36,864 bases of DNA from Candidatus Methylomirabilales bacterium (GTDB lineage Bacteria; Methylomirabilota; Methylomirabilia; Methylomirabilales; CSP1-5), in assembly GCA_046758405.1 (NCBI GenBank), contig JBHIAD010000001.1, positions 1 through 36,864 of the forward strand, read 5' to 3'. The number at the start of each line of letters is the position of its first letter. Within the stretch, counting starts at the first letter, position 1. Shown here piece by piece: positions 3,272-30,341 of this stretch. Position numbers and translations under genes: made by a program. Below the pieces are notes generated by a model. It ran no database searches and was not told where the DNA came from. It was given only the letters and a program-made list of their open reading frames with translations.

Positions 3272-4535
3272 TTGGTATCCGGCGGGAGTCCCGGACCTGT
3301 CCGTCACCGAGCACGATGAACTTCTGACAGGTCAGCTCTGTGATTCCCATCGGCCCGCGAGCATGCAGCTTCTGTGTGCTGATCCCGATCTCGGCTCCCA
3401 TCCCGAACTCGTAGCCGTCCGTGAACCGGGTCGAGGCGTTGACCAACACCGCCCCTGCATCCACTTCCCGGAGGAACCGCATCGCCCGTGCGTGATCCGC
3501 CGTGACGATCGCCTCGGCCAACCCCGAGCCATGGCGGTGAATGTGATGGAGGGCGGCCTCGAAGGACTCGACGACCCTGACGGCCAGAATGAGATCCAAG
3601 TACTCAGCATCCCAGTCGGCCTCCGTCGCGGCAAGGGCCTCCGGCACCAGCCGCCGGGTCTGCGGGCAGCCCCGGAGCTCGACCCCGGCCTCACGGAGCC
3701 GGACTGCAAGCGGCGGGAGGAGTGTGGGGGCAGCGGTCTGGTGAACCAACAGGGTCTCCAGGGCATTACAGACCCCCGGTCGCTCGGTCTTCGCGTTGAC
3801 CACGATGGCCTCAGCCATCACGGGATCAACCACCTCGTCCACATACACGTGACAGATTCCCTGCTCGTGTGCGATGACGGGGATGGTTGCCGTCTCCTTG
3901 ACCAAGCGCACGAGCCCCTTCCCCCCGCGGGGGATCACCAAGTCGATGGAGTGATCCAGGGTCAGCAAGGTCCGCACGGCTTCCCGGTCGGCAGTGGCAA
4001 CGATGCCGACGGCCCCCTTGGGCAGTCCGGCCTTTTCCGCCGCTTGAGCCAGGACTTGGGCGATGGCCCGGTTGCTGCCGATCGCCTCGGAACCCCCTCG
4101 TAGGAGGACCGCGTTGCCCGCCTTGAGACAGAGAGCTGCGACATCCGCGGTGACGTTCGGGCGGGACTCGTAGATCACGGCGATCACTCCGAGAGGAACT
4201 CGCATTCGCCCCACCCAGAGCCCGTTCGGCCGCCGCCGCATGCCCGTCACCTCACCGACGGGATCGGCCAGCGCCGCGGCGGCCTCGATCCCCCGGGCCA
4301 TCTGCTCAATTCGGGCCGACGTCAGCGTGAGTCGGTCCACGAAGGCCGGAGACTTTCGTGCAGCCTGAGCGGCCCGGACATCTTCGACGTTGGCCGCCAT
4401 GATGTCCGTCTGATGGATTCGGAGTCCGGCCGCCATGCCGACCAGGGCCCGGTCCTTGGTTCCCGTGTCAAGCAGGGCCATGGTCCGTGCGGCCTCTTTG
4501 GCCTGGCGGGCGAGTGCCTCCACCTCGTGCATCAC
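3267..4535 (-). CDS. proA: Glutamate-5-semialdehyde dehydrogenase (gamma-glutamyl phosphate reductase)
   Basis: 422 aa, full-length ProA-like sequence (VIYESRPNVT, CNALETLLVH, ASTRFTDG). Start overlaps the proB stop. Confidence 0.95.
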   Translation of the reverse strand: MMHEVEALARQAKEAARTMALLDTGTKDRALVGMAAGLRIHQTDIMAANVEDVRAAQAARKSPAFVDRLTLTSARIEQMARGIEAAAALADPVGEVTGMRRRPNGLWVGRMRVPLGVIAVIYESRPNVTADVAALCLKAGNAVLLRGGSEAIGSNRAIAQVLAQAAEKAGLPKGAVGIVATADREAVRTLLTLDHSIDLVIPRGGKGLVRLVKETATIPVIAHEQGICHVYVDEVVDPVMAEAIVVNAKTERPGVCNALETLLVHQTAAPTLLPPLAVRLREAGVELRGCPQTRRLVPEALAATEADWDAEYLDLILAVRVVESFEAALHHIHRHGSGLAEAIVTADHARAMRFLREVDAGAVLVNASTRFTDGYEFGMGAEIGISTQKLHARGPMGITELTCQKFIVLGDGQVRDSRRIPS

Positions 4536-5677
4536 CGCCGCTCCGATCTGGGGTTCAAGACGACCAGATTATCCCGATGGATGACTTCATCCGAGTGGCG
4601 ATAGCCCAGGACCTTCTCGATCTCCCCGGTTCGCCGCCCTTTGATCCGTTCCACCTCGTCCGCGCTGTAGTTGGCGAGACCACGGCCAAATTCGGCCCCG
4701 TCCGGTCCCACGAGGGCGACCACATCGCCGATCCCGAATGGGCGTTCCGAGCCCCGCACCCCCGACGGCAACAGGCTCCGTCCCTCGAGGATGAGCGCCC
4801 GCTTCGCCCCCTCATCCACTCGGATCGTCCCTTTCGGCCGGCTCGCCACGGCAAGCCACCGCTTGCGCCCACCCATCCGCGAGCGTCGCGGGACAAAGAG
4901 GGTGCCCAGCGGCTCGCCGGCCATGAGACAAGTGAGCACGTGCGGAGCGTGGCCGTTGGCAATGATGGTCGGGATCCCCGACGACACGGCAAGCTGAGCC
5001 GCTTCAACCTTCGAGTCCATCCCCCCGATGCCGATCACCGAACGGGTCGGCCCCGCCCCAAATCCCCTGAGTCCCTCCTCTCCCTCGACGAGGGGGATGA
5101 GTTGGGCCTGAGGGTCGGACCGAGGGTCCGCGGTGTACAACCCATCCTGGTCGGTCAGAATCACCAGGAGATCGGCATCGACGAGCGACGCAACGAGGGC
5201 GGAGAGTGTATCGTTGTCTCCGAACTTGATCTCCTCCACTGCCACCGTGTCATTCTCGTTGATGACGGGCAGGACCTTGAGCTCAAGCAGCGTGAACAGT
5301 GTGTTACGGGCGTTGAGGTAGCGCGCTCGGTCTCTCGTGTCCTCCTGGGTCAACAGGACCTGGGCCACATGCCGGCCCCTCGGATGGAAGGCCTCATCAT
5401 AGGTCGCGATCAAGGCCCCCTGGCCGACGGCGGCAACTGCCTGCTTGAGAGGAATGCTCTGGGGTCGCTCCACCAGGCCGAGCTTCCCCATCCCGGCCAT
5501 GATCGCCCCGGAAGAGACCAGGACTACCTGCAGGCGCTGCTCCATGAGGGCAGTGATCTCCACCGCCAGGATCTCGATCATCGCCCGGTCAATGGTGAAA
5601 GTTCCGTGGGACAGAACCCCGGAGCCCACCTTGACCACAAGGCGCCGGACCCCTTTCAGCAGTTCAGTGCGATCCAT
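4532..5677 (-). CDS. proB: Glutamate 5-kinase
   Basis: 381 aa. N-terminal RLVVKVGSGVLS amino-acid kinase motif and a C-terminal PUA-like region. Located between obg and proA. Confidence 0.95.
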   Translation of the reverse strand: MDRTELLKGVRRLVVKVGSGVLSHGTFTIDRAMIEILAVEITALMEQRLQVVLVSSGAIMAGMGKLGLVERPQSIPLKQAVAAVGQGALIATYDEAFHPRGRHVAQVLLTQEDTRDRARYLNARNTLFTLLELKVLPVINENDTVAVEEIKFGDNDTLSALVASLVDADLLVILTDQDGLYTADPRSDPQAQLIPLVEGEEGLRGFGAGPTRSVIGIGGMDSKVEAAQLAVSSGIPTIIANGHAPHVLTCLMAGEPLGTLFVPRRSRMGGRKRWLAVASRPKGTIRVDEGAKRALILEGRSLLPSGVRGSERPFGIGDVVALVGPDGAEFGRGLANYSADEVERIKGRRTGEIEKVLGYRHSDEVIHRDNLVVLNPRSERR

Positions 5678-6695
5678 CGCTCCCCCCTACCGCCGCCATA
5701 CCCTGGAGGAGACGCCCCTCGAGGTGAGCGACCAAGGCCTCCAGCCCCTCCCCGGTTCGCGCCGAAACCGGAAAACAGGCCAGGCCCTGCTGGCGGCACA
5801 GATCCTCCAATCGACTGAAATTTCCTGCGTCGGGGAGATCCACTTTGTTCCCCACCACCAATCGGGGGAGTGAAGCCACCTGACCCCCGTAGGCTTCGAG
5901 TTCATGGGCCACGGCCCCATACGCGGCCACCGGGTCCCCTCCTGCACTGACGTCCAGAATGAAGAGGATCAATCGCACCCGCTCGATGTGCCGCAGGAAC
6001 TGATGGCCGAGCCCCGCGCCTTCGGCGGCTCCCTCGATCAGACCCGGGACGTCGGCCAGCGTCACGCGCCGTGTCGAACCGAATTCCAGAACGCCAAGGT
6101 TTGGGACGAGGGTCGTGAAGGGATAGTCAGCGATCTTTGGACGCGCCGCAGTCAGCGCCTGCAGGAGGGTTGATTTGCCGGCATTCGGCGGCCCGACGAG
6201 GCCAACGTCGGCAAGGAGTTTGAGCTCGAGCCGAAGGACCCGTTCCTCGCCCGGCTTCCCATCCTCAGCCTCGCGCGGGGCTTGGTTCGTCGGGGTGGCA
6301 AGTCGGGCATTGCCCCGTCCACCCCGCCCTCCGCGGGCCGCCAGGACACACGCTCCTTCCTGATCGAGATCCGCCAGGACCTCGCCGGCTTCGTCGTCGA
6401 GCACCACGGTCCCGATGGGGACCCGAATCACCAGGTCAGCCCCATCCTTCCCGCGGCGGTTCTTCCCGCTCCCATGGGCCCCCCGCTGAGCCCGGTAGGA
6501 TCGTCGGTACTTCTGATCGAGAAGGGTCGCGACTGAGGAAGAGGCCTCCACAAGGATATGACCCCCGCGACCGCCGTCTCCCCCGCTCGGCCCACCCCGA
6601 GGCACGAACTTCTCACGTCGGAAGGCGATGCAGCCATGTCCACCGTCTCCCGCCCTCACCGTAATGCGGGCCACATCGACGAACACGATGAACAC
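5664..6695 (-). CDS. obg: GTPase Obg/CgtA
   Basis: 343 aa. Gly-rich Obg fold (RAGDGGHGCIAFRREKFVPRGGPSGGDGGRGG), then GTPase motifs GPPNAGKST, DVPGLIEGA and NKVD. Confidence 0.95.
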   Translation of the reverse strand: MFIVFVDVARITVRAGDGGHGCIAFRREKFVPRGGPSGGDGGRGGHILVEASSSVATLLDQKYRRSYRAQRGAHGSGKNRRGKDGADLVIRVPIGTVVLDDEAGEVLADLDQEGACVLAARGGRGGRGNARLATPTNQAPREAEDGKPGEERVLRLELKLLADVGLVGPPNAGKSTLLQALTAARPKIADYPFTTLVPNLGVLEFGSTRRVTLADVPGLIEGAAEGAGLGHQFLRHIERVRLILFILDVSAGGDPVAAYGAVAHELEAYGGQVASLPRLVVGNKVDLPDAGNFSRLEDLCRQQGLACFPVSARTGEGLEALVAHLEGRLLQGMAAVGGSDGSH

Positions 6696-6711
6696 GCTGC
6701 TGGCGGTCGCG

Positions 6712-6972
6712 CTACGACGCGAGGGGAACGATGCTCACGAACCGCCCGCGCCCTCCCCGCTCTTGAATCGCGACCTTCCCCGCAATCTTAGCATACAGGG
6801 TATCATCCCTGCCGATGCCCACATGCCAGCCTGGCTTCAATCGGGTCCCCCGCTGACGGACCAGGATCGCCCCCCCTACCACCACTTGACCGGCAAAACA
6901 CTTCATGCCGAGACGCTTCCCCCGACTGTCCCGGCCGTTCCGTGAGCTGCCGACTCCCTTCTTGTGCGCCAT
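6712..6972 (-). CDS. rpmA: 50S ribosomal protein L27
   Basis: [24 protein letters not shown]..., the canonical L27 N-terminus. 86 aa. Confidence 0.95.
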
Positions 6973-6982
6973 CCTCTCCCCC

Positions 6983-7064
6983 GTTCATGGTGAATGGTTC
7001 ACAGTTCATGGCGCACGACTCCACGAGCCCTCCGCTGCAAACCGTGAACCCTGAACTATGAACC
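6983..7064. repeat. Palindromic intergenic element built from GTTCAYR heptads, copy B (inverted relative to copy A)
   Basis: Left arm: gttcatg gtgaatg gttcaca gttcatg (6983-7010). Right arm: cgtgaac cctgaac tatgaac (7043-7063). The reverse complement of copy B aligns with copy A through both the arms (20/23 in the best arm) and the loop (GCGGA..CTCGT..GCGC). It fills the rplU-rpmA spacer and overlaps the rplU stop codon. Confidence 0.75.
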
Positions 7065-7373
7065 TCCGATGATCTCCTCAATCTGGAGACGGGTTAACTC
7101 CTGCCGATGTCCGATCGTCCTTCGGTACTTTTCGCGGCGCCGAAACTTGAAGACGGTCACCTTCGTTCCACGCCCCTGGGTCAGGATCTTCGCCCGAACC
7201 CTGGCTCCCGCGATGAGGGGGGTGCCGATCCGGATCGCCTGCTCGTCGTTCAGGGCGAGGACCCGGTCCAGGTACACCGTGTCGCCGATCCCCCCCAGGA
7301 GGCGCTCGACTGTCACGACCTCCCCCGGGGCCACCCGGTACTGCTTCCCGCCGGTCTCAACCACTGCGTACAC
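7056..7373 (-). CDS. rplU: 50S ribosomal protein L21
   Basis: (GTG start) YAVVETGGKQYRV..., the canonical L21 N-terminus. 105 aa. Preceded by GGGAGGAGG. Confidence 0.95.
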   Translation of the reverse strand: MYAVVETGGKQYRVAPGEVVTVERLLGGIGDTVYLDRVLALNDEQAIRIGTPLIAGARVRAKILTQGRGTKVTVFKFRRREKYRRTIGHRQELTRLQIEEIIGGS

Positions 7374-7419
7374 CAGTCCGCCTCCTCCCAGTTCGCTATG
7401 TCCGCGGAAACAAAATGTT

Positions 7420-7449
7420 TTTATAACACGGCGGTCAGGGTCGTGTCAA
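7420..7449 (-). promoter_or_regulatory. Sigma-70-type promoter candidate for the rplU operon
   Basis: Minus strand: TTGACA (7449-7444), an 18-nt spacer, then TATAAA (7425-7420). Lies about 47 nt upstream of the rplU start in a locally AT-richer stretch. Confidence 0.5.
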
Positions 7450-7575
7450 TCACCACCGTTCAGGCCAACCCTGCGGCGACGATTCCTTACAATCTCGATC
7501 GAGACCGACACCGCTTGACGAGAATCCCGCGCACCGTTACCCCGGAAAGAGGCAGCGCAGCCAGCGTGCGACAGA

Positions 7576-15662: not shown

Positions 15663-18563
15663 TCATCCCACCATCCACTCTGCCAGGACCTCCGCCGGGT
15701 GCCCGGCCCAGCGTGCGGTCCCCTGGGCGATCTGCTGCCGACAAGAGACGCCGGGTGCGACGATGACCGTCTCGGGCCCCGCCGATTCCACGGCCGGAAA
15801 GAGGCGCCGTGCCCCAATGGCCATGGAGAGCTCGTAGTGCTCGCGCTCGAAACCGAAGGAGCCCGCCATCCCGCAGCAGCCGGCGTCCACATCAGTGATC
15901 GTGAGCTCCGGGACGCGCCGGAGCAGCTCCACCACCGGTCCGGTCCCGACGCTCGCCTTGAGGTGACAGTGGCCATGGAGAAGCACCCGGCGCGCGCCGG
16001 GGGCGAAGTGCAGGTCCAGGGCACCCTCCTCAGCGAGCTGGTTCAGGAATTCCTCGAGCAGAAAGGAGCCCCGCGCAACCCCCTCGGCCTCAGGACCATC
16101 CACCAGTTCCCGGTACTCCTCGCGGAAGGTGAGGAGGCAACTCGGCTCGCACCCGACGATGGGGATGTGGGCTTCGACGTACCGGTGCAGCCGACGGACG
16201 TTCTCCCGTGCCTGCTCCCGCGCCGACTCCAACAGCCCCTTGGAGATCATCGGGCGGCCACAGCAACCTGCCTCCGCCAGCAGGACCTGAAACCCGGCCC
16301 GTTCAAGGAGTTTTGTCGCCGCCCGGCCGACCTCCGGGTAGTGGAAGGTCATGAAGGTGTCGGCGAAGAGGGCCACCTGACCCCGGCGCCCTGGCGGCGA
16401 GGGCCCCCGGGTGCGAAACCACTGGCTGAAGGTCGGCCTGGCGAAGGGGGGGAGCCGCCGCCGCCGGTCGACCCCGCCGAGGTGATGGAGCGCGAGGCGG
16501 GTCAGCGGAAAGGCAAGCAGCCAGTTGGAGAGGGGGGCCAATCGCGAGCCGAATTTACCGAGGGTCCACGCATGGGCGAAGAGCCGCGCCCGGAGCGGTA
16601 CGCCGTGCTCATGGTGGTACGCCGCCAGGAACTCGGACTTCAGCTTGGCCATGTCTACCCCCTGGGGGCACTCACTCTTGCAGGCCTTGCACTCGAGACA
16701 GAGATCCAGCGTTTCGTACAGCCGGTGACCGGTCAACGCTGACGGCGGCAGGGTCCCGGACAGAACTGCGCGGAGCGCGTTGGCGCGCCCGCGGGTGGAG
16801 TGTTCCTCATCAAGGGTCGCCATGTATGACGGACACATCGTGGCCTCGTCCTGCTTGCGGCACCTGCCCACCCCGGTACAGCGCTCCACGGCCTGGGCGA
16901 ATGTCTCACTCCGGAAGGCCTGGACCGGGGTCACCGAGACCGTCCGATAGGCCTCGCCGTACCGCAGGTGCTTCACCACCAGGTCGGGATCGTCCCCGAC
17001 GATCTTCCCAGGGTTCAAGAGGCCACGGGGATCGAAGCACGCCTTCACCTTCGCAAAGGCCTTCGCCAGGTCACCGTACTGGTCGCGGATAAAACCGGTG
17101 CGGGCCAGACCATCCCCGTGCTCGGCGCTGATCGTCCCGTGGAGGCGCCAGACAAGCTGATGGCACTCCTCGGCAAAAGACCGGATCTTGGCAATGTCGC
17201 GGGAATCCCTCATGTTCAGGCAGGGCATGATGTGGAGGTTGCCATCCCCCGCATGGCCGTATATGGCTGCGACCACGTCGTACTGTTTCAGCAGGGCCCG
17301 GACGCCGGTGATGAACTCTGGAAGGCGCGAGGGGTGGACCGCCGCGTCCTCGATGAAGGCGACCGGCCGACGCCCCCCCTGCACTTCCCGGAGCGCCGAG
17401 CCGGCAGCCTTGCGGACCGCCACCAGCTCGGTACGGCTTGCCGCGTCGGTGGCCAGGATCATGTCCTCAGCCAGGCCCAGTCCCTCGACGACCCGTCGCC
17501 TGCTCTCCTCCATGCGGCCCCGGACCTCGTCCGGATTGTCGCCCTCGTGTTCCAGCAACAGGACCGCTTCGAGCGCCGCGGGCAGGAAGGCCCGGAGGTC
17601 CGGGTCGGCCTCGCGCGAGACATCGAGGAGTGTCCGCTCGATGACTTCGATCATGCTCGGCTGCTGCTCGCGCAGAACCGCCACCGCCTCCCCCATCTTT
17701 TCCAGGGAGCCGAAGGTGAGGAGGGCGAGCAAGCGGTGACGCGGCTGACCAATCAGCCTGAGGGTGGCCTCGGTGAAGACCCCGAGGGTCCCCTCGGAGC
17801 CCACCAAGAGCTGCGTCAGGTCCAGCCGTCCATTCGCCCGCACCCCCCAGAGGTTGTAGCCGCAGTTGTTGTTGGTGACCTCGGGCGCCCGGGCCTGCAT
17901 CTCCAATCCGTACTGCTCGAGCACGTTGAGCACTCCCCGAAGGATCCCCCCGCTGAGGGGATGCTCGCACCAAGCGACAGCAGCCGCTCCCCCCTCCGCA
18001 AACGGCTCAAACCGCACAATGTCGCCGCTTGCGAGGACCACTTCGAGGCTCTCCACGTAGTTCCGGGTCGGGCCGTACTTGACCGAGTGGGAGCCCTTCG
18101 CGTTGTTCGCCAACATCCCGCCAAGGGTGCACACTTCTCCGCTGGACGGATCGGGCGGAAAGTACTTGCGGTGTGGAAGGAGGGCCTGAGTGAAGGCGTT
18201 GAGCACGACGCCGGGCTGCACCCGCGCGCGACTGCCCTGCGGATCAATCTCGAGAATGCGGTCCATATGCCGCGTGAAGTCCAGGACGATTCCCGCCCCC
18301 AGGGCCTGCCCCACCCGGCTCGACCCCCCGCCCCGGGCGATGATGGGGATGCCCCGCTCCGCCGCGTACCGGACCGTCGTTACCACGTCCCCACGATCCT
18401 TCGGGAAAACCACAGCCACCGGCGGGACCCGGTACATGCAGGCCCCGGTGCTGTACAGGGCCCGGCTCATTTCATCGTTCCGCACCTCTCCCGCGATGGC
18501 CGGGCCGAGATCGGCGGCCACCGCCCGGGCTCGTGCCGCAGTGTCACGGGACGCACTCACCAC
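15663..18563 (-). CDS. FAD-binding oxidase fused to 4Fe-4S and CCG cysteine-rich domains (GlcD+GlcF / YdiJ-like 2-hydroxyacid dehydrogenase)
   Basis: 966 aa. N-terminal PCMH-type FAD domain (VVFPKDRGDVV..ARGGGSS), the FAD-oxidase C-terminal domain (ISAEHGDG), the ferredoxin motif CLECKACKSECP, and two CCG-type regions (CEPSC.., DAGCCGMAGSFG). The GTG start lies 1 nt after the porG stop. Confidence 0.85.
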   Translation of the reverse strand: MVSASRDTAARARAVAADLGPAIAGEVRNDEMSRALYSTGACMYRVPPVAVVFPKDRGDVVTTVRYAAERGIPIIARGGGSSRVGQALGAGIVLDFTRHMDRILEIDPQGSRARVQPGVVLNAFTQALLPHRKYFPPDPSSGEVCTLGGMLANNAKGSHSVKYGPTRNYVESLEVVLASGDIVRFEPFAEGGAAAVAWCEHPLSGGILRGVLNVLEQYGLEMQARAPEVTNNNCGYNLWGVRANGRLDLTQLLVGSEGTLGVFTEATLRLIGQPRHRLLALLTFGSLEKMGEAVAVLREQQPSMIEVIERTLLDVSREADPDLRAFLPAALEAVLLLEHEGDNPDEVRGRMEESRRRVVEGLGLAEDMILATDAASRTELVAVRKAAGSALREVQGGRRPVAFIEDAAVHPSRLPEFITGVRALLKQYDVVAAIYGHAGDGNLHIMPCLNMRDSRDIAKIRSFAEECHQLVWRLHGTISAEHGDGLARTGFIRDQYGDLAKAFAKVKACFDPRGLLNPGKIVGDDPDLVVKHLRYGEAYRTVSVTPVQAFRSETFAQAVERCTGVGRCRKQDEATMCPSYMATLDEEHSTRGRANALRAVLSGTLPPSALTGHRLYETLDLCLECKACKSECPQGVDMAKLKSEFLAAYHHEHGVPLRARLFAHAWTLGKFGSRLAPLSNWLLAFPLTRLALHHLGGVDRRRRLPPFARPTFSQWFRTRGPSPPGRRGQVALFADTFMTFHYPEVGRAATKLLERAGFQVLLAEAGCCGRPMISKGLLESAREQARENVRRLHRYVEAHIPIVGCEPSCLLTFREEYRELVDGPEAEGVARGSFLLEEFLNQLAEEGALDLHFAPGARRVLLHGHCHLKASVGTGPVVELLRRVPELTITDVDAGCCGMAGSFGFEREHYELSMAIGARRLFPAVESAGPETVIVAPGVSCRQQIAQGTARWAGHPAEVLAEWMVG

Positions 18564-18564
18564 G

Positions 18565-19113
18565 TCACTTCCCCCGGGTGCTTTCGAAACCGGCGTGCAG
18601 CGCCTCGAGGCCGGCCTTTACCATCCGGTCCTTCCCGCCCGCGTTCTTGAGGAGCGCTTCGACCGTGTGGAGCTGCACGAGCTTCATCAGGGCGATGAGG
18701 GCCCCGACAAGGACTGGGGCCAGCTCCGCCTTGTGGGCCTTCGCCACGTCGCTCAGGTCCAGGGTCACCAACCTGGCCTTGTCGGTGAGCGCGAGGAACA
18801 CTTCGCTGTTGATGAGCAGGAGCCCCCCCGGTTTGAGGCCGCCCACCACGTTCACCTCGCTGATCACCGTCGGATCGGTCACGATCACTGCATCCAGAAA
18901 GGACTCTTGCTGGTAGGTCTCAATGGGTGCTTCGTCCATCCTGAGATGCGCCGTCTCCGGGGTAAATCCCCGGAGGAAGAGCCAGGGGGGACGGAACTGG
19001 ACGTGCTTCCCCTCGATCAGGGCAGCCTCGGCCAGCAACTTCGGAGCCGCCACGAAGGGGGCCACACGATCGTACCGGGGCTCGCGGCGGCCATGAAACC
19101 GGAGCTCCTTCAT
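18565..19113 (-). CDS. 2-oxoacid:ferredoxin oxidoreductase gamma subunit (divergent)
   Basis: 182 aa. LRFHGR..KLLAEAALIEGKHVQ..TAHLRMDEAPI..DAVIVTDP..GGLLLINS follows the POR gamma layout, but the usual GRGGQG motif reads GRREPR. Located directly after the beta subunit with a 4-nt overlap. Confidence 0.7.
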   Translation of the reverse strand: MKELRFHGRREPRYDRVAPFVAAPKLLAEAALIEGKHVQFRPPWLFLRGFTPETAHLRMDEAPIETYQQESFLDAVIVTDPTVISEVNVVGGLKPGGLLLINSEVFLALTDKARLVTLDLSDVAKAHKAELAPVLVGALIALMKLVQLHTVEALLKNAGGKDRMVKAGLEALHAGFESTRGK

Positions 19114-19991
19114 CGCCTCGCTCCCCAGGCGGCATCGACCTGCTGCTGCAGTGACTGGATCTCGCGGGGGCGGAGCCCAGCGAACCGCCCTTGGAGGAGG
19201 AGGTACTCTCGCACCGGGCGGCGGCGTTTCGGTCTGTAGGTCACCCGCATTTCCCCCCCGTCTACCTCGGAGAGGATCCAGAGGCCGGTCTCCACCGCCA
19301 CCTTCGTGACGTCAATGGTGTCGGTGTGAGGGAAGCCCCAGGCGATCGGGCAGGGGGTCAGCACTTGAATGTACCGGAACCCCTTGACCTGAGCAGCCCG
19401 GTGAAGCTTCCGCCGGTAATCGTCCGGATGCGAGACGGCCGCGGTGGCGACATAGGGCACGCCGTGGGCCGCCATGATCCGTGGCACGTCCTTCTGGAGG
19501 GCGGGTGTGCCGGCCGGGGTGGTCGGGGTGCGGGCGAGGCCCGGCGTGAGCGAGGTCGCCTGGCCCTGAGTGTTCATGGCAACCTCGTTGTCATAACAGA
19601 TGTACAGGATGTGCTCGTTCCGGCTGGCCGCCCCGGAGAGGGCCTGGAAGCCGATGTCGGCAGTCCCCGAGTCCCCAGCGAAGCAGACCACGTGGACGTC
19701 TTTGAGCCCCCGCACGTCGTACGCGCGCCTCAGTCCCGTGGCTGCCGCCGGCGCACTCTCGAAGATCCAGTGAACAAAGGGGACCTGCCACGCGGTGTGG
19801 GTGTAAGAGAGACTGAAGGTCGCAGCACAGCTCGCCGGGCAGAGGACGGCCATCTTCGACCCAAGCGTCTCGGCCAGGATGTCTGCGGCCGGGAGCGCTC
19901 CGCACCCTTCGCAGGCGGTCCCCATCAGGACGGGCGGCAGGGTAAACCGATCTGACTTCGGGAGGGTTGCGATCCGATTGGGGCCTGCCAT
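19110..19991 (-). CDS. 2-oxoacid:ferredoxin oxidoreductase beta subunit (TPP-binding)
   Basis: 293 aa. CEGCG cluster-ligand motif and the TPP-binding GDSGTADIGFQALSGAASRNEHILYICYDNEVAMNTQGQ. Confidence 0.85.
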   Translation of the reverse strand: MAGPNRIATLPKSDRFTLPPVLMGTACEGCGALPAADILAETLGSKMAVLCPASCAATFSLSYTHTAWQVPFVHWIFESAPAAATGLRRAYDVRGLKDVHVVCFAGDSGTADIGFQALSGAASRNEHILYICYDNEVAMNTQGQATSLTPGLARTPTTPAGTPALQKDVPRIMAAHGVPYVATAAVSHPDDYRRKLHRAAQVKGFRYIQVLTPCPIAWGFPHTDTIDVTKVAVETGLWILSEVDGGEMRVTYRPKRRRPVREYLLLQGRFAGLRPREIQSLQQQVDAAWGARR

Positions 19992-20007
19992 CCCGTCCTC
20001 CTTATTA

Positions 20008-21237
20008 TTATCCTGGGCGTGCTACCGGGTAAAACTGCGGCGACTCATCGCGCACCCGGTCCTGATTGAGGGCGAGCCAGTGGATCCCCCCATCGGTACG
20101 ATCAAAGGGGGTGCTCCCTCTGATTGCCCGCCGGGCGAGGTCTTTGATCTGTGAGATGGTCACATCCCGTCCCGCCAATCCGGCGATAACCCCGAGAACC
20201 CGTGGGGGTTTCGGCAGGCCGTAGAGTGCGGACCGCACCTCTTCGTACAGTGCGCCGTGGGCGCCCGCCGCGCAGTTGCGGTCGATGGTGACGACGACCT
20301 CCGCCTGGCCGAGGGCCTCCCGGAGCAGATGCGCAGGGAAGGGTCGATAGACTCTGAGGGCACAGCAGGCTGCCGAGGCTCCCTCGCTCTCCAGCTCCTT
20401 CGCTGCGCGGCGGGCCGCTTTGACGATCGAGCCCATGGCCACAAGCACGCATCGCTTCTTTCCCTCCGCACACTCCACGAGGCCACGTGGGCGCGTCCCG
20501 AAAGCCTCGGCGTAGCTCGAGGCGACCTCGGGGATGACCGTGAGGGCGCGGTTCATTGCCTGGTGCTCGGCGTACTTGAACTCTGTGTACCACTCCGGCG
20601 GTGTCGGCGGGTTCAGCGCCCGCGGGTGCGCAGGATCCAGCAACGCCTCAACTGCAGGCGGACCCAGCCAGCGATTTACGGCATCGGCCTTGGGGACCAG
20701 GACCCCCTCCGCCGTGTTCGAGTGGATGAAGGACTCGTAGCAGAACATCCCTGGGAGGCGGACCCGGCGGTCCTCGCACACTTTGTAGAGCTGCACGCAC
20801 GTCTCCAACACATCTTGGGCGTCTTCGCAGAAGATCTGAATCCATCCTGACCGGCTGACCCCGAGGGCATCGTTATGGTCGGCATAGCGGGTGTGGGGGA
20901 CCGAGATCCCTCGGCTCACCACCGCCATCACGATGGGGCATCGGCTGCCGGAGGCAGTGTATAGGTGCTCGGCCATGAGGAGAAGTCCCTGCGAGTTCGT
21001 CGCCGTAAAGACCCGCGTCCCGCCCAGAGAGGCCCCGACCGCCGCCGCCATCGCTGCGTAGTCCGACTCCATGTTGATGAACTCACACGGGAATGCCCCG
21101 GCTTGGATATCCCGGGCAAGCTCTCCGAGCATCCCCGACTGGGGGGTGATCGGGTAGATCGGGATGACCTGCACTCGCGCCAGGCGTACCGCTCGTCCGA
21201 CCGCCTGATTACTCGTCAGGAGCTCAACCGCCTCCAT
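20008..21237 (-). CDS. 2-oxoacid:ferredoxin oxidoreductase alpha subunit
   Basis: MEAVELLTSNQAVGRAVRLARVQVIPIYPITPQS..ATNSQGLLLM, the typical POR/KOR alpha N-terminus. I used the start at 21237. The track's 39 extra residues are unsupported. Confidence 0.85.
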   Translation of the reverse strand: MEAVELLTSNQAVGRAVRLARVQVIPIYPITPQSGMLGELARDIQAGAFPCEFINMESDYAAMAAAVGASLGGTRVFTATNSQGLLLMAEHLYTASGSRCPIVMAVVSRGISVPHTRYADHNDALGVSRSGWIQIFCEDAQDVLETCVQLYKVCEDRRVRLPGMFCYESFIHSNTAEGVLVPKADAVNRWLGPPAVEALLDPAHPRALNPPTPPEWYTEFKYAEHQAMNRALTVIPEVASSYAEAFGTRPRGLVECAEGKKRCVLVAMGSIVKAARRAAKELESEGASAACCALRVYRPFPAHLLREALGQAEVVVTIDRNCAAGAHGALYEEVRSALYGLPKPPRVLGVIAGLAGRDVTISQIKDLARRAIRGSTPFDRTDGGIHWLALNQDRVRDESPQFYPVARPG

Positions 21238-21450
21238 CCCGCTCCTCCCTGGTCCACACCACCCCCGATCGCCCACCATCCTTCGGAAGGGCCCAACGAT
21301 GGCCAGATGCGACTGCGTGAGGATACTCCCGCCGCAAAAACTGTGCCGGGGCAATGGCGCGGCGTGGGTCAGGTAAATCTCATTCGGAGTAGCTTGTATT
21401 GCTTTATTCTCAAACAGTTATACACCACTTCTGGCATCCTGAATACAGGA

Positions 21451-24409: not shown

Positions 24410-24481
24410 CCCACTACCCCCTCTGCCGGGTGAACTCCACACCTCCCGACTGCCCCGCCGCGGCTTCCGGCTAATGCTATC

Positions 24482-24510
24482 AGCGTAAATCGTTTTACGC
24501 GCGGCGTCAA
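24482..24510 (-). promoter_or_regulatory. Sigma-70-type promoter candidate for gltA
   Basis: Minus strand: TTGACG (24510-24505), a 17-nt spacer, then TACGCT (24487-24482). Lies about 70 nt upstream of the gltA ATG. Confidence 0.4.
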
Positions 24511-24629
24511 TCGGCTATTTTCCCCATGAGCGAGGATCGCGGGTAGGAACGGGTGAGATCCAAAAGGCACTCGCTGAAGTAGGGGGCTTCACGCGATACC
24601 CCCGCGGACAAGTCCCAACCGCGAACGGG

Positions 24630-24712
24630 AAAAAAGAACGCCCCGATGGTGTCTGCGGTCGAGGCATAACGCCTGTCACCCGCCCCGCGGATGAAGCGCG
24701 GGACCATCGGGG
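24630..24712 (-). terminator. Possible minus-strand terminator: a 10-bp closing helix around two small hairpins, followed by a U-tract
   Basis: ccccgatggt (24641-24650) is the exact reverse complement of accatcgggg (24703-24712). The helix encloses aggc-ataac-gcct and cccgcg-gatgaag-cgcggg. On the minus strand it is followed by cgTTcTTTTTTccc (24640-24627). Confidence 0.3.
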
Positions 24713-24980
24713 TCGGTGGTGCCTGGGCCCCCCCCAGGCGGCCACCCTGACTGAAACTGGGGGCCTGGCCTAGGAGGCCACCACCTCACAGATCACCGGA
24801 CATCTACCTATCACGGCTGGATCACCTCCTCTCTCGGCGTACCCGCCCCGCGGGCCCAACTCCCACACCCCCTAACCCGGCCGCCGCGACCGAGCACGGG
24901 TGGCGACCCGCGCCACGCGCCCCCATTGACGCACGCCGCGCACGGGGCCTGTGTGCACCCCGACCGCCGGAGGCATCTTA

Positions 24981-25012
24981 ACCGGGTGAGGCCACCCGGT
25001 CCAGCGTTTTTT
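24981..25012 (+). terminator. Intrinsic-terminator-like hairpin on the plus strand
   Basis: accgggtg / aggc / cacccggt is a perfect 8-bp stem with a 4-nt loop. It is followed by ccagcg and then TTTTTT (25007-25012). No plus-strand gene lies upstream of it. Confidence 0.35.
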
Positions 25013-25095
25013 GAAAGCGGAGACCCCGTCCGTGGCAGGCCGACGGCCCCTGGCATCTGCAGAGGATTCCAAGATCGCGGCTACCCCGGTCAACC

Positions 25096-25500
25096 TCAGC
25101 GTGTGGAGCTGGCCGCCCGCATGCCCACCATGGCCAGCATCCCCGTGATACCCATGAGGCCCAGGACGAGGAGTCGGGAGAGGAGACCTGTGCGATACTG
25201 ATCTGAAGTGAAGACATCCGGGAGATGGAAGAGGCCTGCTCCGATGAACCAGACCAGGCCAACGCCGACGTGGAGCAGGTGCCCCCGTCGGCGGTCGTGG
25301 GCCGACAGCACCAGGGCAATGCCCTGCAGCGCGTACAGGGCGGCGAGCGCTCCGGCCAAGACCGCGTTGGAGAGGCCCAAGGCGGCGGCCTCTCCGTAGA
25401 AGAAATCCTCCGCCGCATGGGGCACCGTGAAGAGATAGCTCACGATTGAAACCGTCAGGACCCCGTAGGCCCGCCTCCGGACCGCCATCAGATCCCCCAC
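25096..25500 (-). CDS. Small integral membrane protein, unknown function (about 4 TM helices)
   Basis: 134 aa with four hydrophobic stretches (VLTVSIVSYLF, VLAGALAALYALQGIALVL, VGVGLVWFIGAGLF, LLVLGLMGITGMLAMV). Overlaps the SDR stop by 13 nt. No motif I recognise. Confidence 0.6.
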   Translation of the reverse strand: MGDLMAVRRRAYGVLTVSIVSYLFTVPHAAEDFFYGEAAALGLSNAVLAGALAALYALQGIALVLSAHDRRRGHLLHVGVGLVWFIGAGLFHLPDVFTSDQYRTGLLSRLLVLGLMGITGMLAMVGMRAASSTR

Positions 25501-26222
25501 GCCCCGCTCACGTGCATGTTCGCCCCATTCACATAGCGCGCGTCGTCAGAGACCAGGAAACGCACCACACCCACGACGTCCTGCACCGAGCCGACGTAGC
25601 CGGCCGGGATCCGTTTCTCCATCGCGTGCAGCTCCTCGGCCGGCGCGCTCCCCGAGTCGACGAACCCCGGGGAGATGGCGTTCACCGTGATCCCGTGCGG
25701 AGCGAGCAGCCGTGCAAGGGAGCGGGTCAGGACCAAGACGCCCGCCTTGGCAATGTAATGGGCCGTGAGCTGGGGCATGGCGACCAGCTGGTCAGCCGTC
25801 GCCATGGCGAAGTTGATGATGCGCCCCCACTTGCGTGTCATCATGCTCGGGGCGACAGCTCGGCTCAGATAGAAGACCGGATGCAGGTTGTTGTCGAACA
25901 TCCTGTGCCACCCGTCAATCGTCTCCTCCAGGAGGTTCACCCGGTGGTATGGGCCAGCCCCGTTGACGAGCAGGTCGATCCGTCCCCAACTCTCTTCAAC
26001 CTGCTTCACCAGCCGCTCCGCCGCCTGGGCGTCCGACACGTCGCACTGAATTGCCAGGGCCTGACTCCCCGCTGCCCGGATCGCCTGTCCGGTCTCCTCC
26101 GCCTCCCGGGCACTTGCTCGGTAGCAGAACGCGATCCCCCAGCCTGCCGCTGCCAGGTCGAGGGCGATCGCCCGCCCAATCCCGCGGGCCCCACCCGTGA
26201 TCAGGGCTACCTGCTCGCTCAT
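25488..26222 (-). CDS. SDR family oxidoreductase (FabG-like)
   Basis: 244 aa. TGGARGIGRAIA (TGxxxGxG), NGAG, and YIAKAG (catalytic YxxxK). The start overlaps the HAD stop (ATGA). Confidence 0.9.
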   Translation of the reverse strand: MSEQVALITGGARGIGRAIALDLAAAGWGIAFCYRASAREAEETGQAIRAAGSQALAIQCDVSDAQAAERLVKQVEESWGRIDLLVNGAGPYHRVNLLEETIDGWHRMFDNNLHPVFYLSRAVAPSMMTRKWGRIINFAMATADQLVAMPQLTAHYIAKAGVLVLTRSLARLLAPHGITVNAISPGFVDSGSAPAEELHAMEKRIPAGYVGSVQDVVGVVRFLVSDDARYVNGANMHVSGAWGI

Positions 26223-26974
26223 CGACCCGTGCCTTCCGTGCGCCTCGGTCTCCCTCGCCGCGAGAACTCTCCGTCATGCGGTGCACCATCGGCAAGGGCG
26301 AACTCCACCACCGCCCCCAGGTCTTTGACCTTCGGGCAGTCCAGGTCGGGCCACACCCCGAGCGGATCGAGCAGCAGGGCCTCCAGCCCCGCGCGACGCG
26401 CGCCGAGGACGTCAACCGAATAGTAGTCGCCCACGTAGACAGCCCGCGACGCCTCGACTCCGGCTTCCCTGAGGGCCATGCGAAAAATCCGGGGATCGGG
26501 CTTTTCCACCCCGACCATACCGGAGTCGACGATCACCTGCAGGAACCCCACCAGCCCGGCGGCCTCGAGGTGGTCCGCGATGCGCCCATCCGAGTTCGAA
26601 ACGACCCCCAGGATGATCCCTTTTCCCCTAAGCGTCGCCAGGGTATCCGCCGCACCCGGGGCCGCCCGACGCCACAGCCCGCGCTCGGAGTTGGCCCGGC
26701 AGAGGTCCCCGAAGACCTCCTCGACTGCACCATTCCACGGAAGGCCCAGCCCTTCGGTGACCATCTCCATGTACCGGCGGAACACGCGAGAAGCTTCGGT
26801 AGCCTGCTGCTCGGCCAGAAAGGGGTCCATCCGGACCCGGGCCCGGATCTCGGCCTCACGAACCTCCTCCGAGGTCCGGGAGATCCCGACCCGCTTGAGG
26901 CGCTCGCTGATGAAGGGATAGTCCAGCTCGAGGAGCGTGTTACCTGCGTCGAAGAGGATCGCCTCGAGGACCAT
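26219..26974 (-). CDS. HAD-superfamily hydrolase, subfamily IA (REG-2-like variant)
   Basis: ILFDAGNTLL (motif I with Gly at the Asp+2 position), VVSNSD (motif II), VEKPDPRIF and YVGDYYSVDVLGARRAG (motifs III/IV). GGAGG RBS. Confidence 0.85.
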   Translation of the reverse strand: MVLEAILFDAGNTLLELDYPFISERLKRVGISRTSEEVREAEIRARVRMDPFLAEQQATEASRVFRRYMEMVTEGLGLPWNGAVEEVFGDLCRANSERGLWRRAAPGAADTLATLRGKGIILGVVSNSDGRIADHLEAAGLVGFLQVIVDSGMVGVEKPDPRIFRMALREAGVEASRAVYVGDYYSVDVLGARRAGLEALLLDPLGVWPDLDCPKVKDLGAVVEFALADGAPHDGEFSRRGRPRRTEGTGR

Positions 26975-27065
26975 GGGGCCTCCGCACTTTCCAACGGCAT
27001 CCCGCCACCACGGCTGGGGAGGGCGGTGGCTGCCCGGTCAATAGGAAGGCGGGAAACCGGCCCCG

Positions 27066-27632
27066 CTACACGTCGATCGCCTCGGGCGGGCGCGTCAGTG
27101 CCATCAGGACTTGGGGAAAGATCTCCTCGGTCCGCTTGCGGAGGTCCTCCGGCCGGAGGTTAGCGATCGGATGGGCGATGGCCACCACCGGATAGGTCGG
27201 CATCCCGAAGTTCTTTGCATGCTGGCGGGCGGCCTGCTTGAATCCCTCGGTCACGATAGTCGCGGTGACCACGCCCCGCCGTTCCAACTCTGCCGCGTCG
27301 CGCAAACTGCCCGACGTGCAGGACCCTCACCCCCCGACCGCGCTCACGACGAGGTCGCACCGCTGGACAAGGCGGTCAATCAGCTCCGGCGGGGCCGCCT
27401 TGGTGTAATACTCCTTCCGCTCCCGAACGACCTCCGCATACTCGAAACGCTCCGCCAGCAGCTCCTCGAGTCGCGCCAAGATCTCATCGGCGCGCTCTTT
27501 GCTGTTGTCGAGGAACCCGATCCGGAGACCGGTCAGCTCGGGATTGCGCGGGGCCAGAGGGAAGGACTCAGTCAGCTCGTCAGCAACGGGCTCTAGGACC
27601 ACGAGTCCAGCGCCCTTACGCTCATAGCTCAT
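27066..27632 (-). CDS. Predicted selenoprotein with a U-G-S-C redox motif (UGSC/GrdB-PrdB-like); in-frame TGA at 27327-27329 read as Sec102
   Basis: Track ORFs 27327..27722 and 27066..27305 share one frame and are separated only by TGA plus 7 sense codons. Joined, they read ..DLVVSAVGG-U-GSCTSGSLRDAAELERRGVVTATIVTEGF... The downstream ORF has no ATG or RBS of its own (the track used TTG). ATG 27632 follows GGGAGG with a 7-nt spacer. A hairpin starts 8 nt after the TGA. Confidence 0.65.
27290..27321 (-). promoter_or_regulatory. SECIS-like hairpin immediately 3' of the in-frame UGA
   Basis: Minus strand: UGA-gggtc-CTGC-a-CGTCG-ggcagtttgcg-CGACG-cg-GCAG. That is 4 bp plus 5 bp separated by a 1x2 internal loop, with an 11-nt apical loop containing GUUU about 19-29 nt after the UGA. 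Confidence 0.4.
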
Positions 27633-27740
27633 CGACACGCCTCCCGTCGGTGTCGAGACTGCACGTCCGGGGGACACCACCCCGCGCGCCATGACCTGGC
27701 GCGCAAATCGGAGCGCGGGCACCGCCCGCTATCACACCTC

Positions 27741-29046: not shown

Positions 29047-29078
29047 GTCAAGTGCACCCCTGCCCGTGGAGGTCCCCA

Positions 29079-30341
29079 ATGGTGACACTGCCCCGCATGG
29101 TCACGGTGCGAGCCAGGCGCCGTGGCCCCGAGCTGAGACAACCGGGTCGGGCCACGGCGCGGGCCCTCAGGAATCTCCCTCTGTCCCCCCGCCTCCGTCC
29201 GGGCCAGCGCGTGGCAGTCACCGCCGGCAGTCGCGGGATTGCCCGTGTGGCCGAGATCACCCGCGGGCTGGTCGACTTTCTCCGCGACCGGGAGGCCGAG
29301 CCCTTCATCATCCCGGCGATGGGAAGCCACGGCGGCGCGACGGCCGAGGGCCAGCGCGCCGTCCTCGCGGAGTACGGAATCACTGAAGCCGCCATGCGGG
29401 TCCCGATCCGCTCCTCCATGGAGGTGATCGAGATCGGCCGCACACCGGAGGGTATCCCGGTCTACCTGGATCGGCACGCGGCCGAGGCGGACCACATCGT
29501 CGTGGTGAACCGGATCAAGCCCCACACCGCTTTCGCCGACCGCTTTGGCAGTGGCCTGATGAAAATGATCGCATTGGGTCTGGGCAAGCACCGTGGGGCG
29601 ATCGCCTGCCACGAGGCCACCATGGCGTACGGCTTCGCTCGAGTCATCACGGCCGTAAGCCAGGTGGTGCTCGCCAAGGCCCCCATTCTCTTCGGCCTGG
29701 CCATCCTCGAGAACAGCCAGGGGGGCCTCGCCGCCGTCTCGGCCATCCCGGCCGAGATCCTCAAGGCCGAGGAGTTAAAGCTCTACCGCAAGGCGGCCCG
29801 GTGGGCGCCTCGGCTCCCCTTCGAGGAGCTCGACCTGCTCATCGTGGAGGAGATGGGGAAGCACGTGGCCGGGACCGGGATGGACACCAACGTGATCGGC
29901 CGGCGGTGCAGCCTCATTGAGCCACCCCCCAAGCGTCCCCGCATCGGTCGGATCTTCGTGCGCGGGCTCAGCCCCGAGACCCGGGGGAACGCCAACGGAA
30001 TCGGCCTCGCCGACTTCACCACGGACCGGGTCTGCGCGATGGTCGACCGGCACGCGACCTACATGAACGCGGTGACCGCGCGGACCCCCGATCATGCTCG
30101 GCTCCCGGTATCCTACCCCACCGACCGAGAGGTCCTCGATGTGGGGCTGCGCACAATCCGGACGCGCAACCCCATGCAGGCCCGCATCCTCCGGATCCAG
30201 AATACCCTGGAACTCAGTCGATTCCAGGTCTCCGAGGCCTTGCTCCCCGAGGTCCGCGCGCGGAGGGACTTGGTGACCGAAGGAGAGCCCGTTTCCCTCG
30301 AGTTCGACGCCGAGGGCTTTCTCCGCCCCTTCCACGCCTGA
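29079..30341 (+). CDS. LarA N-terminal-domain-like (DUF2088-related) protein, function unknown
   Basis: 420 aa. The layout recalls lactate-racemase-like proteins (RVAVTAGSRGIA where LarA has the DxTRP strand; IIPAMGSHGGATAEGQRAVLAEYGIT resembling the LarA xxGTHR segment). This rests on memory of the family, not on a search. I used the start at ATG 29079, after GGAGG. Confidence 0.5.
   Translation: MVTLPRMVTVRARRRGPELRQPGRATARALRNLPLSPRLRPGQRVAVTAGSRGIARVAEITRGLVDFLRDREAEPFIIPAMGSHGGATAEGQRAVLAEYGITEAAMRVPIRSSMEVIEIGRTPEGIPVYLDRHAAEADHIVVVNRIKPHTAFADRFGSGLMKMIALGLGKHRGAIACHEATMAYGFARVITAVSQVVLAKAPILFGLAILENSQGGLAAVSAIPAEILKAEELKLYRKAARWAPRLPFEELDLLIVEEMGKHVAGTGMDTNVIGRRCSLIEPPPKRPRIGRIFVRGLSPETRGNANGIGLADFTTDRVCAMVDRHATYMNAVTARTPDHARLPVSYPTDREVLDVGLRTIRTRNPMQARILRIQNTLELSRFQVSEALLPEVRARRDLVTEGEPVSLEFDAEGFLRPFHA

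Follow-up and report, generated by a model that had tools for sequence, protein, structure and literature searches.

An in-frame UGA joins two open reading frames of a Methylomirabilota contig into one predicted UGSC-family selenoprotein gene

Background

The stretch of DNA considered here (hereafter, the window) comprises 36,864 nucleotides of a contig from Candidatus Methylomirabilales, in the phylum Methylomirabilota (NC10). On its minus strand, two open reading frames (27327..27722 and 27066..27305) lie close to each other around a TGA codon, which raises the question whether they constitute two genes, the remains of a broken one, or a single gene whose UGA is translated as selenocysteine (Sec). 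The original prediction, made from the nucleotide letters, proposed that this in-frame UGA is the Sec codon of a U-G-S-C protein. The proposal is supported by the comparative evidence presented below, e.g., a TGA at the homologous codon in 93 of 93 other loci, homologues with cysteine at the same position, and a SECIS hairpin.

UGSC is the 'UGSC-containing protein' of Zhang and Gladyshev (example accession in the reviews: ABI76733.1), a listed selenoprotein of unknown function since 2007, reported in Hyphomonas neptunium (PMC1976440). GOS contained 255 Sec versus 21 Cys forms of UGSC, which was one of the commonest selenoprotein families there and has counted among the most abundant environmental ones since 2008; a fusion of UGSC with a domain called 'Unknown_1' was noted in the same study, and a Trx-like fold was proposed there in 2008 (PMC2398784). 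Current reviews include the family together with its NF041046 model (PMC13188914, PMC9312934). The family having been described in 2007-2008 (PMC1976440, PMC2398784), the window gene is a new member and not new biology. What appears modestly new, and is still unproven, is the covariation of the SECIS element, the near-obligate partner protein lacking a Pfam or NCBIfam model, and the flavodoxin-like fold.

Results and discussion

Gene structure and reading frame

According to the ORF table and a reading of the minus strand from 27800 to 26900, both open reading frames share a common frame, and all that lies between them is the TGA at 27327-27329 and a further 21 nucleotides, corresponding to seven sense codons (GSCTSGS). 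Translation from 27632 to 27066 runs through ...CDLVVSAVGG*GSCTSGSLRDAAELERRGVVTATIV... and yields 188 codons, with codon 102 as the sole internal stop and TAG at 27066 as the end (Table 1). The Met encoded by ATG 27632 is the aligned start of the orthologues as well as of the window gene. For the downstream frame, the sole potential start is a TTG at 27305, located inside the SECIS loop and accompanied by neither a Shine-Dalgarno sequence nor an ATG.

The shared frame with its TGA and seven sense codons had been described in the original prediction, as had the start of the upstream half at ATG 27632 after GGGAGG and the lack of an ATG or Shine-Dalgarno sequence proper to the downstream half. 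The ORF table and the translation agree with the first of these statements, the 7-nt spacer and the Met shared by the orthologues with the second, and the lone TTG within the SECIS loop with the third. It had also been foreseen that gene callers would split such a gene, and this is what they do: the GenBank and Logan annotations of orthologues consist of fragments (103 and 76 aa, 101 and 68 aa). In the public records examined, the gene and its orthologues thus appear as two "hypothetical protein" fragments, while the correct call is one selenoprotein of 188 aa. The "two ORFs" are one 188-codon gene, with Sec predicted at the in-frame UGA. Judged from the related genes, the one-frame arrangement with its in-frame TGA is far beyond chance, because the same TGA is found in all 93 of them that cover the site.

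Table 1. Features of the UGSC locus and of its surroundings in the window
Feature	Position	Strand	Remarks
Predicted UGSC-family selenoprotein CDS	27066..27632	-	188 codons including Sec102; matches to NF041046 and PF24696; orthologues colinear over the full length
In-frame UGA (U102)	27327..27329	-	TGA in 93/93 other loci covering the site
Cys105 codon, partner of Sec102 in U-x-x-C	27318..27320	-	Invariant column in alignment A6
Shine-Dalgarno-like GGGAGG	27640..27645	-	7-nt spacer to ATG 27632; direct sequence reading
Predicted SECIS hairpin, CGUCG-G-GCA-[GUU]-UGC-G-CGACG	27296..27316	-	Loop 27305-27307; stem begins 10 nt past the UGA
Partner gene, evidently 'Unknown_1' of PMC2398784	27741..28874	-	377 aa (367 aa if the start is 28844); immediately upstream of UGSC
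LarA-like nickel-pincer-cofactor-dependent isomerase, group 22	29052..30341	+	NF052515, 495 bits (cutoff 400); divergent neighbour
HAD-family hydrolase	26219-26974	-	Pfam/NCBIfam matches; downstream of UGSC
SDR oxidoreductase	25488-26222	-	Pfam/NCBIfam matches; downstream of UGSC

Conservation of the UGA and of the downstream half

A first word-index search returned one match only. A genome scan recovered eight orthologues from Methylomirabilota MAGs (62-76% identity), a metagenome scan with alignment A3 as the query added 80 further loci (35-73% identity), and four more loci, found via the partner protein, likewise carry TGA at the homologous codon. In the recovered loci, the TGA is followed by G-[SA]-C and by a frame that stays open to a normal stop about 80 codons on. 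The homologous codon is TGA in each of the 93 other loci that cover the site, at identities ranging from 35 to 100%. Between the window and a Logan assembly of run SRR29324601, there are six mismatches in 7,076 nt, of which the one within the gene is synonymous. Because this separate assembly carries the same TGA, an assembly error does not appear tenable as an explanation for the codon.

Identity to the window amounts to 58-86% in the C-terminal half versus 59-70% in the N-terminal half. The part downstream of the UGA is at least as conserved as the part upstream of it and is under strong purifying selection. Of the in-frame TGAs in the window, that at 27329 alone is flanked on either side by good coding signal and stood up to checking; TGA 15062 on the plus strand, also a strong candidate, was rejected as antisense to an enoyl-CoA hydratase gene.

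Membership in the UGSC family

The NCBIfam model NF041046, named "UGSC family (seleno)protein", recognises the joined product (U replaced by C) with a score of 150.2 bits against a curated cutoff of 125, and its profile aligns from position 2 to position 147 (of 147) with residues 35-180. The match to the Pfam family PF24696, "UGSC", reaches 178.4 bits (cutoff 25) and places positions 2-171 of 172 on residues 12-180. Both alignments extend across the UGA junction. The NCBI family of this name had been mentioned in the original prediction; the model does exist, and the joined sequence passes its cutoff. The homologues looked for there are found as well, with TGA or Cys aligned to position 102 and extending through the junction. 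The U102-G-S-C105 motif falls on the family column, and U/C102 and C105 are invariant in alignment A6.

Among the matches listed in a profile search are 120 full-length homologues, each a PF24696 protein of about 180 aa in one chain, and in every one of them Cys occupies the U column. One of these Cys forms, from Roseicella frigidaeris, carries the name "UGSC family (seleno)protein". When the N-terminal half was compared with 1.84 billion cluster representatives, 826 matches were obtained at E ≤ 1e-3, and of the best 150 of these, about 145 have a length of only about 95-105 aa and terminate precisely at ...G[D/G], as would be expected if gene callers halted at a Sec codon. The predominance of Sec forms over Cys forms, suggested here by these truncated representatives and in GOS by the counts quoted above (255 versus 21; PMC2398784), is a further likeness to the known family, as is the association with the 'Unknown_1' domain (PMC2398784). 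The window gene nevertheless differs from other members in some respects. It belongs to a Methylomirabilota clade with the motif GG-U-GSCTSGS, whereas GD-U-GSC is commoner in the family, and the extra Cys after the motif that is found in many UGSC members (CTSWS / CTLCS / CCSCC) is absent. Identity to the nearest orthologues in the databases reaches only about 75%, and these are recorded as hypothetical proteins in split form.

A covariation-supported SECIS hairpin

In nine close sequences, RNAalifold places a hairpin at alignment columns 20-40, corresponding to 27296-27316 in the window. Across the 73 distinct sequences of alignment A4, 88.9% of the cells are paired, versus 16-49% in controls with the 3' arm shifted by 1-3 columns. 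At pair 27-33, 41 sequences have CG and 32 have GC, and no sequence is unpaired; pair 24-36 occurs as GC, CG, AU, and GU; at pair 25-35, most clades have U-A, but the clade of the window has a G.G mismatch. The loop reads G-U-N in every A4 sequence. At the level of the aligned sequences, the distribution of these variants shows compensatory changes in support of the hairpin. Part of the nucleotide conservation at this site could stem from codon-level constraint on the conserved peptide. In the nine close orthologues, only 14 of the 80 amino-acid-invariant degenerate codons are also codon-invariant, and residues 104 and 106-109, which fall within the 5' arm and loop or immediately 5' of them, account for five of these 14 frozen sites (Fisher p=0.003).

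Folded in isolation, the hairpin has an energy of -11.2 kcal/mol (z=-3.9, none of 200 shuffles as good). The single-sequence MFE of the raw 66 nt after the UGA is no better than that of shuffles (z=-0.5), and the SECIS call therefore rests on the comparative data. A 4-bp hairpin (CUGC/GCAG) nearer the UGA, first seen by eye, was dropped, as covariation favours columns 20-40. Two Cys-form genes with TGC (L097 and L098), serving as a small negative control, lack the hairpin (-2.3 and -2.2 kcal/mol, loops GCG and GCA), and five TGA forms from other phyla give values between -6.8 and -11.2 kcal/mol.

The stem-loop resembles fdhF-type bacterial SECIS elements in its location within the coding region just 3' of the UGA, with a 19-nt spacing. 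The G and U of its loop, at 27307 and 27306, are found at +23 and +24 (the U of UGA being +1), presumably the positions that are essential in the SECIS of E. coli fdhF. It differs from the latter by the lack of a bulged U, and beyond the loop G-U no sequence similarity exists between the two. The hairpin also has no match in Rfam: a scan at the gathering and E ≤ 10 thresholds returned no SECIS family. Like other bacterial elements, it combines a stem of 8-9 bp with a small loop of 3 nt (5 nt if the closing A-U is opened) of the type N-G-U-N-N. The bSECIS consensus model (PMC13188914, Fig. 2A) is defined by a UGA-loop distance of 16-37, an MFE threshold of -7.5 kcal/mol, and an N-G-U-N-N loop, and the values of the window hairpin lie within these bounds (loop GUU, 8-9 bp stem, 19 nt from UGA to loop, -11.2 kcal/mol). 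The comparative data thus provide a clean covariation-supported SECIS for the whole UGSC family.

Alternative explanations for the in-frame UGA

The UGA could be read through by a near-cognate or suppressor tRNA (Trp, Cys, or Gly) or under a reassigned code, instead of by Sec-tRNASec. UGA is reassigned in some uncultivated bacteria, and the window itself holds no Sec machinery: selA, selB, and selD are missing from the Pfam/NCBIfam annotation of its approximately 34 genes, and no tRNA, tRNA-Sec included, is present in its 36.9 kb. Such decoding is nonetheless very unlikely. Of the 34 well-supported window genes, 17 end in TGA as their ordinary stop, so UGA is not reassigned genome-wide; the position, loop, and stem of the hairpin agree with the SelB-type SECIS model; and homologues without the UGA always have Cys at the aligned residue. 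Moreover, the phylum is documented as a Sec user. Methylomirabilota are reported to be selenoprotein-rich, with one MAG predicted to hold 63 selenoprotein genes (PMC13188914) and with Sec-type hydrogenases occurring in the phylum (PMC13582414).

Termination at the UGA, which would give separate polypeptides of 101 aa and about 79 aa (from TTG 27305) or the first half only, matches the automatic annotation of the locus, but it is more improbable still. The second half would have to be translated from a TTG sitting in the hairpin loop, with neither an ATG nor a Shine-Dalgarno sequence, and the GSCTSGS segment that would be lost between the TGA and this TTG is the most conserved part of the family, including the invariant Cys105. 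In addition, each Cys form consists of one chain of about 180 aa, and the frame is kept in every locus. The least probable explanation, with hardly any weight left to it, is that of a pseudogene or of an assembly or sequencing error that turned a Cys codon (TGC/TGT) into TGA. A single base change does interconvert the two, and Cys forms with TGC at this codon exist; however, the TGA is present in all 93 other TGA-type loci, which come from independent assemblies and include a separately assembled near-identical strain, the downstream half is under strong purifying selection, and the SECIS hairpin accompanies the TGA and is missing from the TGC forms. The probability that the window gene is a Sec-decoding gene of the UGSC family is put at roughly 0.93.

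Predicted fold and comparison with other redox proteins

The AF2 model of a Cys-form homologue (P0357, 38% identical to the window protein; pLDDT 87.8) is a parallel α/β/α sandwich in which U/C102-x-x-C105 lies at the start of helix 103-118, directly after strand 94-100. Compared with the PDB by Foldseek, this model gives generic matches (TM 0.35-0.5); the top 50 comprise flavodoxins, WrbA, FMN reductases, and lumazine synthase, and no thioredoxin is among them. The UGSC fold is predicted to be flavodoxin-like rather than thioredoxin-like, and the Trx-like fold proposed in 2008 (PMC2398784) is not supported by the model. The likeness to thioredoxin-fold UxxC/CxxC oxidoreductases consists in a redox-type UxxC motif at a helix N-terminus after a β-strand, whereas the modelled Cys-form homologue is a flavodoxin-like parallel sandwich.

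PDB sequence and profile searches with UGSC found no relative. A weak PDB sequence match to the LeuD small subunit (3vba, E=0.84; motif G-C-G-S-S-R-E) was rejected, because the predicted fold is flavodoxin-like, the Foldseek top 50 contain no LeuD-type chain, and the profile search was without a match. The original prediction had also compared the UxxC spacing with that of selenoprotein B of glycine reductase. The spacing holds, as Sec precedes Cys by three residues in the window protein and UxxC is given for PrdB in Table 2 of PMC2398784, but the likeness is one of motif only: PF07355 (GRDB) gave no match at E ≤ 1 for the window protein, nor at E ≤ 5 for 20 family members. In contrast to GrdB and PrdB, the window protein is much smaller (188 aa) and has another genomic partner, and no homology to them is detectable.

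The anatomy of the locus and the established Sec biology of bacteria suggest how the gene might be expressed. On meeting the UGA at 27327-27329, the ribosome would be supplied with SelB.GTP.Sec-tRNASec recruited by the hairpin at 27296-27316; Sec would be inserted in place of termination, and translation would run on to the TAG at 27066. The product of 188 aa is predicted, after the 38%-identical Cys homologue, to fold into a flavodoxin-like α/β/α structure with Sec102 at a helix N-terminus right after a β-strand. Sec102 and Cys105, one helical turn apart, may constitute a selenenylsulfide (Se-S) redox couple, as suggested by the motif and the predicted fold.

The 377-aa partner protein

The protein encoded next to UGSC has no match in Pfam, NCBIfam, or the PDB sequences, and its homologues, at least 7,965 in number, are all unnamed or "hypothetical protein". 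In 77 of 89 loci, its gene and that of UGSC are same-strand neighbours, with the partner upstream in 36 cases and downstream in 41 and a median distance of about 95 nt, and the two are fused in several database proteins (e.g., P0104, P0181, P0187, and P0192-P0197). The partner evidently corresponds to 'Unknown_1' of PMC2398784, and its gene and UGSC probably share a transcript. Its invariant residues include Cys91, Cys189, and His. Its AF2 model (pLDDT 85) has weak PDB matches only (TM ≤ 0.28), to class I fumarate hydratase and Toblerone-fold cyclic amide hydrolases. UGSC is thus almost always accompanied by one uncharacterised family of proteins of about 350-380 aa, which has thousands of members but is modelled in neither Pfam nor NCBIfam, and the unit to study is the UGSC-partner pair rather than UGSC alone.

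A tentative functional reading is that UGSC and its 377-aa neighbour might form an obligate two-subunit selenoenzyme of an undescribed kind, carrying out a Sec-dependent reduction or ring-opening in the catabolism of small molecules, possibly with an N-containing or hydroxy-acid substrate. Speculatively, UGSC might serve as the small redox subunit and the 377-aa protein as the other component, the two acting jointly on a small molecule. Sec would be nearly indispensable to such a two-subunit selenoenzyme, because Sec forms greatly exceed Cys forms.

Gene neighbourhood and other features of the window

Beyond the partner, no third conserved gene is universal beside UGSC, and the context varies by lineage. 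The LarA-like, HAD, and SDR genes are confined to the closest relatives: the LarA-like gene adjoins the UGSC pair only in L001, L002, and L005, and the order UGSC-HAD-SDR is kept only in L001-L005 and L091. In other clades, the neighbours include a Mo-hydroxylase with Amidohydro_2, an amidase with a transporter, an NMT1-type binding protein with Amidohydro_2, and LysR. Three loci from related genomes (L094-L096) have a three-subunit molybdenum hydroxylase (Fer2 / FAD_binding_5 / MoCoBD) divergent from the partner-UGSC pair and upstream of the partner; in L094, an Amidohydro_2 gene lies beyond it.

LysR regulators flank some UGSC loci, including all three Cys-form loci examined (L097 at 5729-7567, L098 at 3820-5543, and one JGI contig), where the order is LysR regulator, partner of about 370 aa, and UGSC(Cys). 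In one clade, UGSC occurs as a pair of paralogues separated by about 4 kb, both with an in-frame TGA of their own (L029, L052, L060, L061, L069, L073, L083, and L087), e.g., at 2914 and 7084 in L052 and at 5300 and 9378 in L060; in the latter two loci, the partner gene, an NMT1-type binding protein, and an Amidohydro_2 enzyme sit between the paralogues.

At the UGSC stop codon, a terminator-like hairpin with a T-poor tail (GCGGGGCCGGTTTCCCGC, 27049-27066, minus strand) was dismissed as not significant (one site versus 2.2 expected). Elsewhere in the window, the interval 24443-25095, about 650 nt between a citrate synthase gene and a 134-aa membrane-like ORF, has no convincing ORF and no Rfam match. 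On the minus strand at 15663-21354, a 966-aa FAD-linked oxidase fused to 4Fe-4S and CCG domains is encoded beside three genes for 2-oxoacid:ferredoxin oxidoreductase subunits, an assembly of ordinary metabolism.
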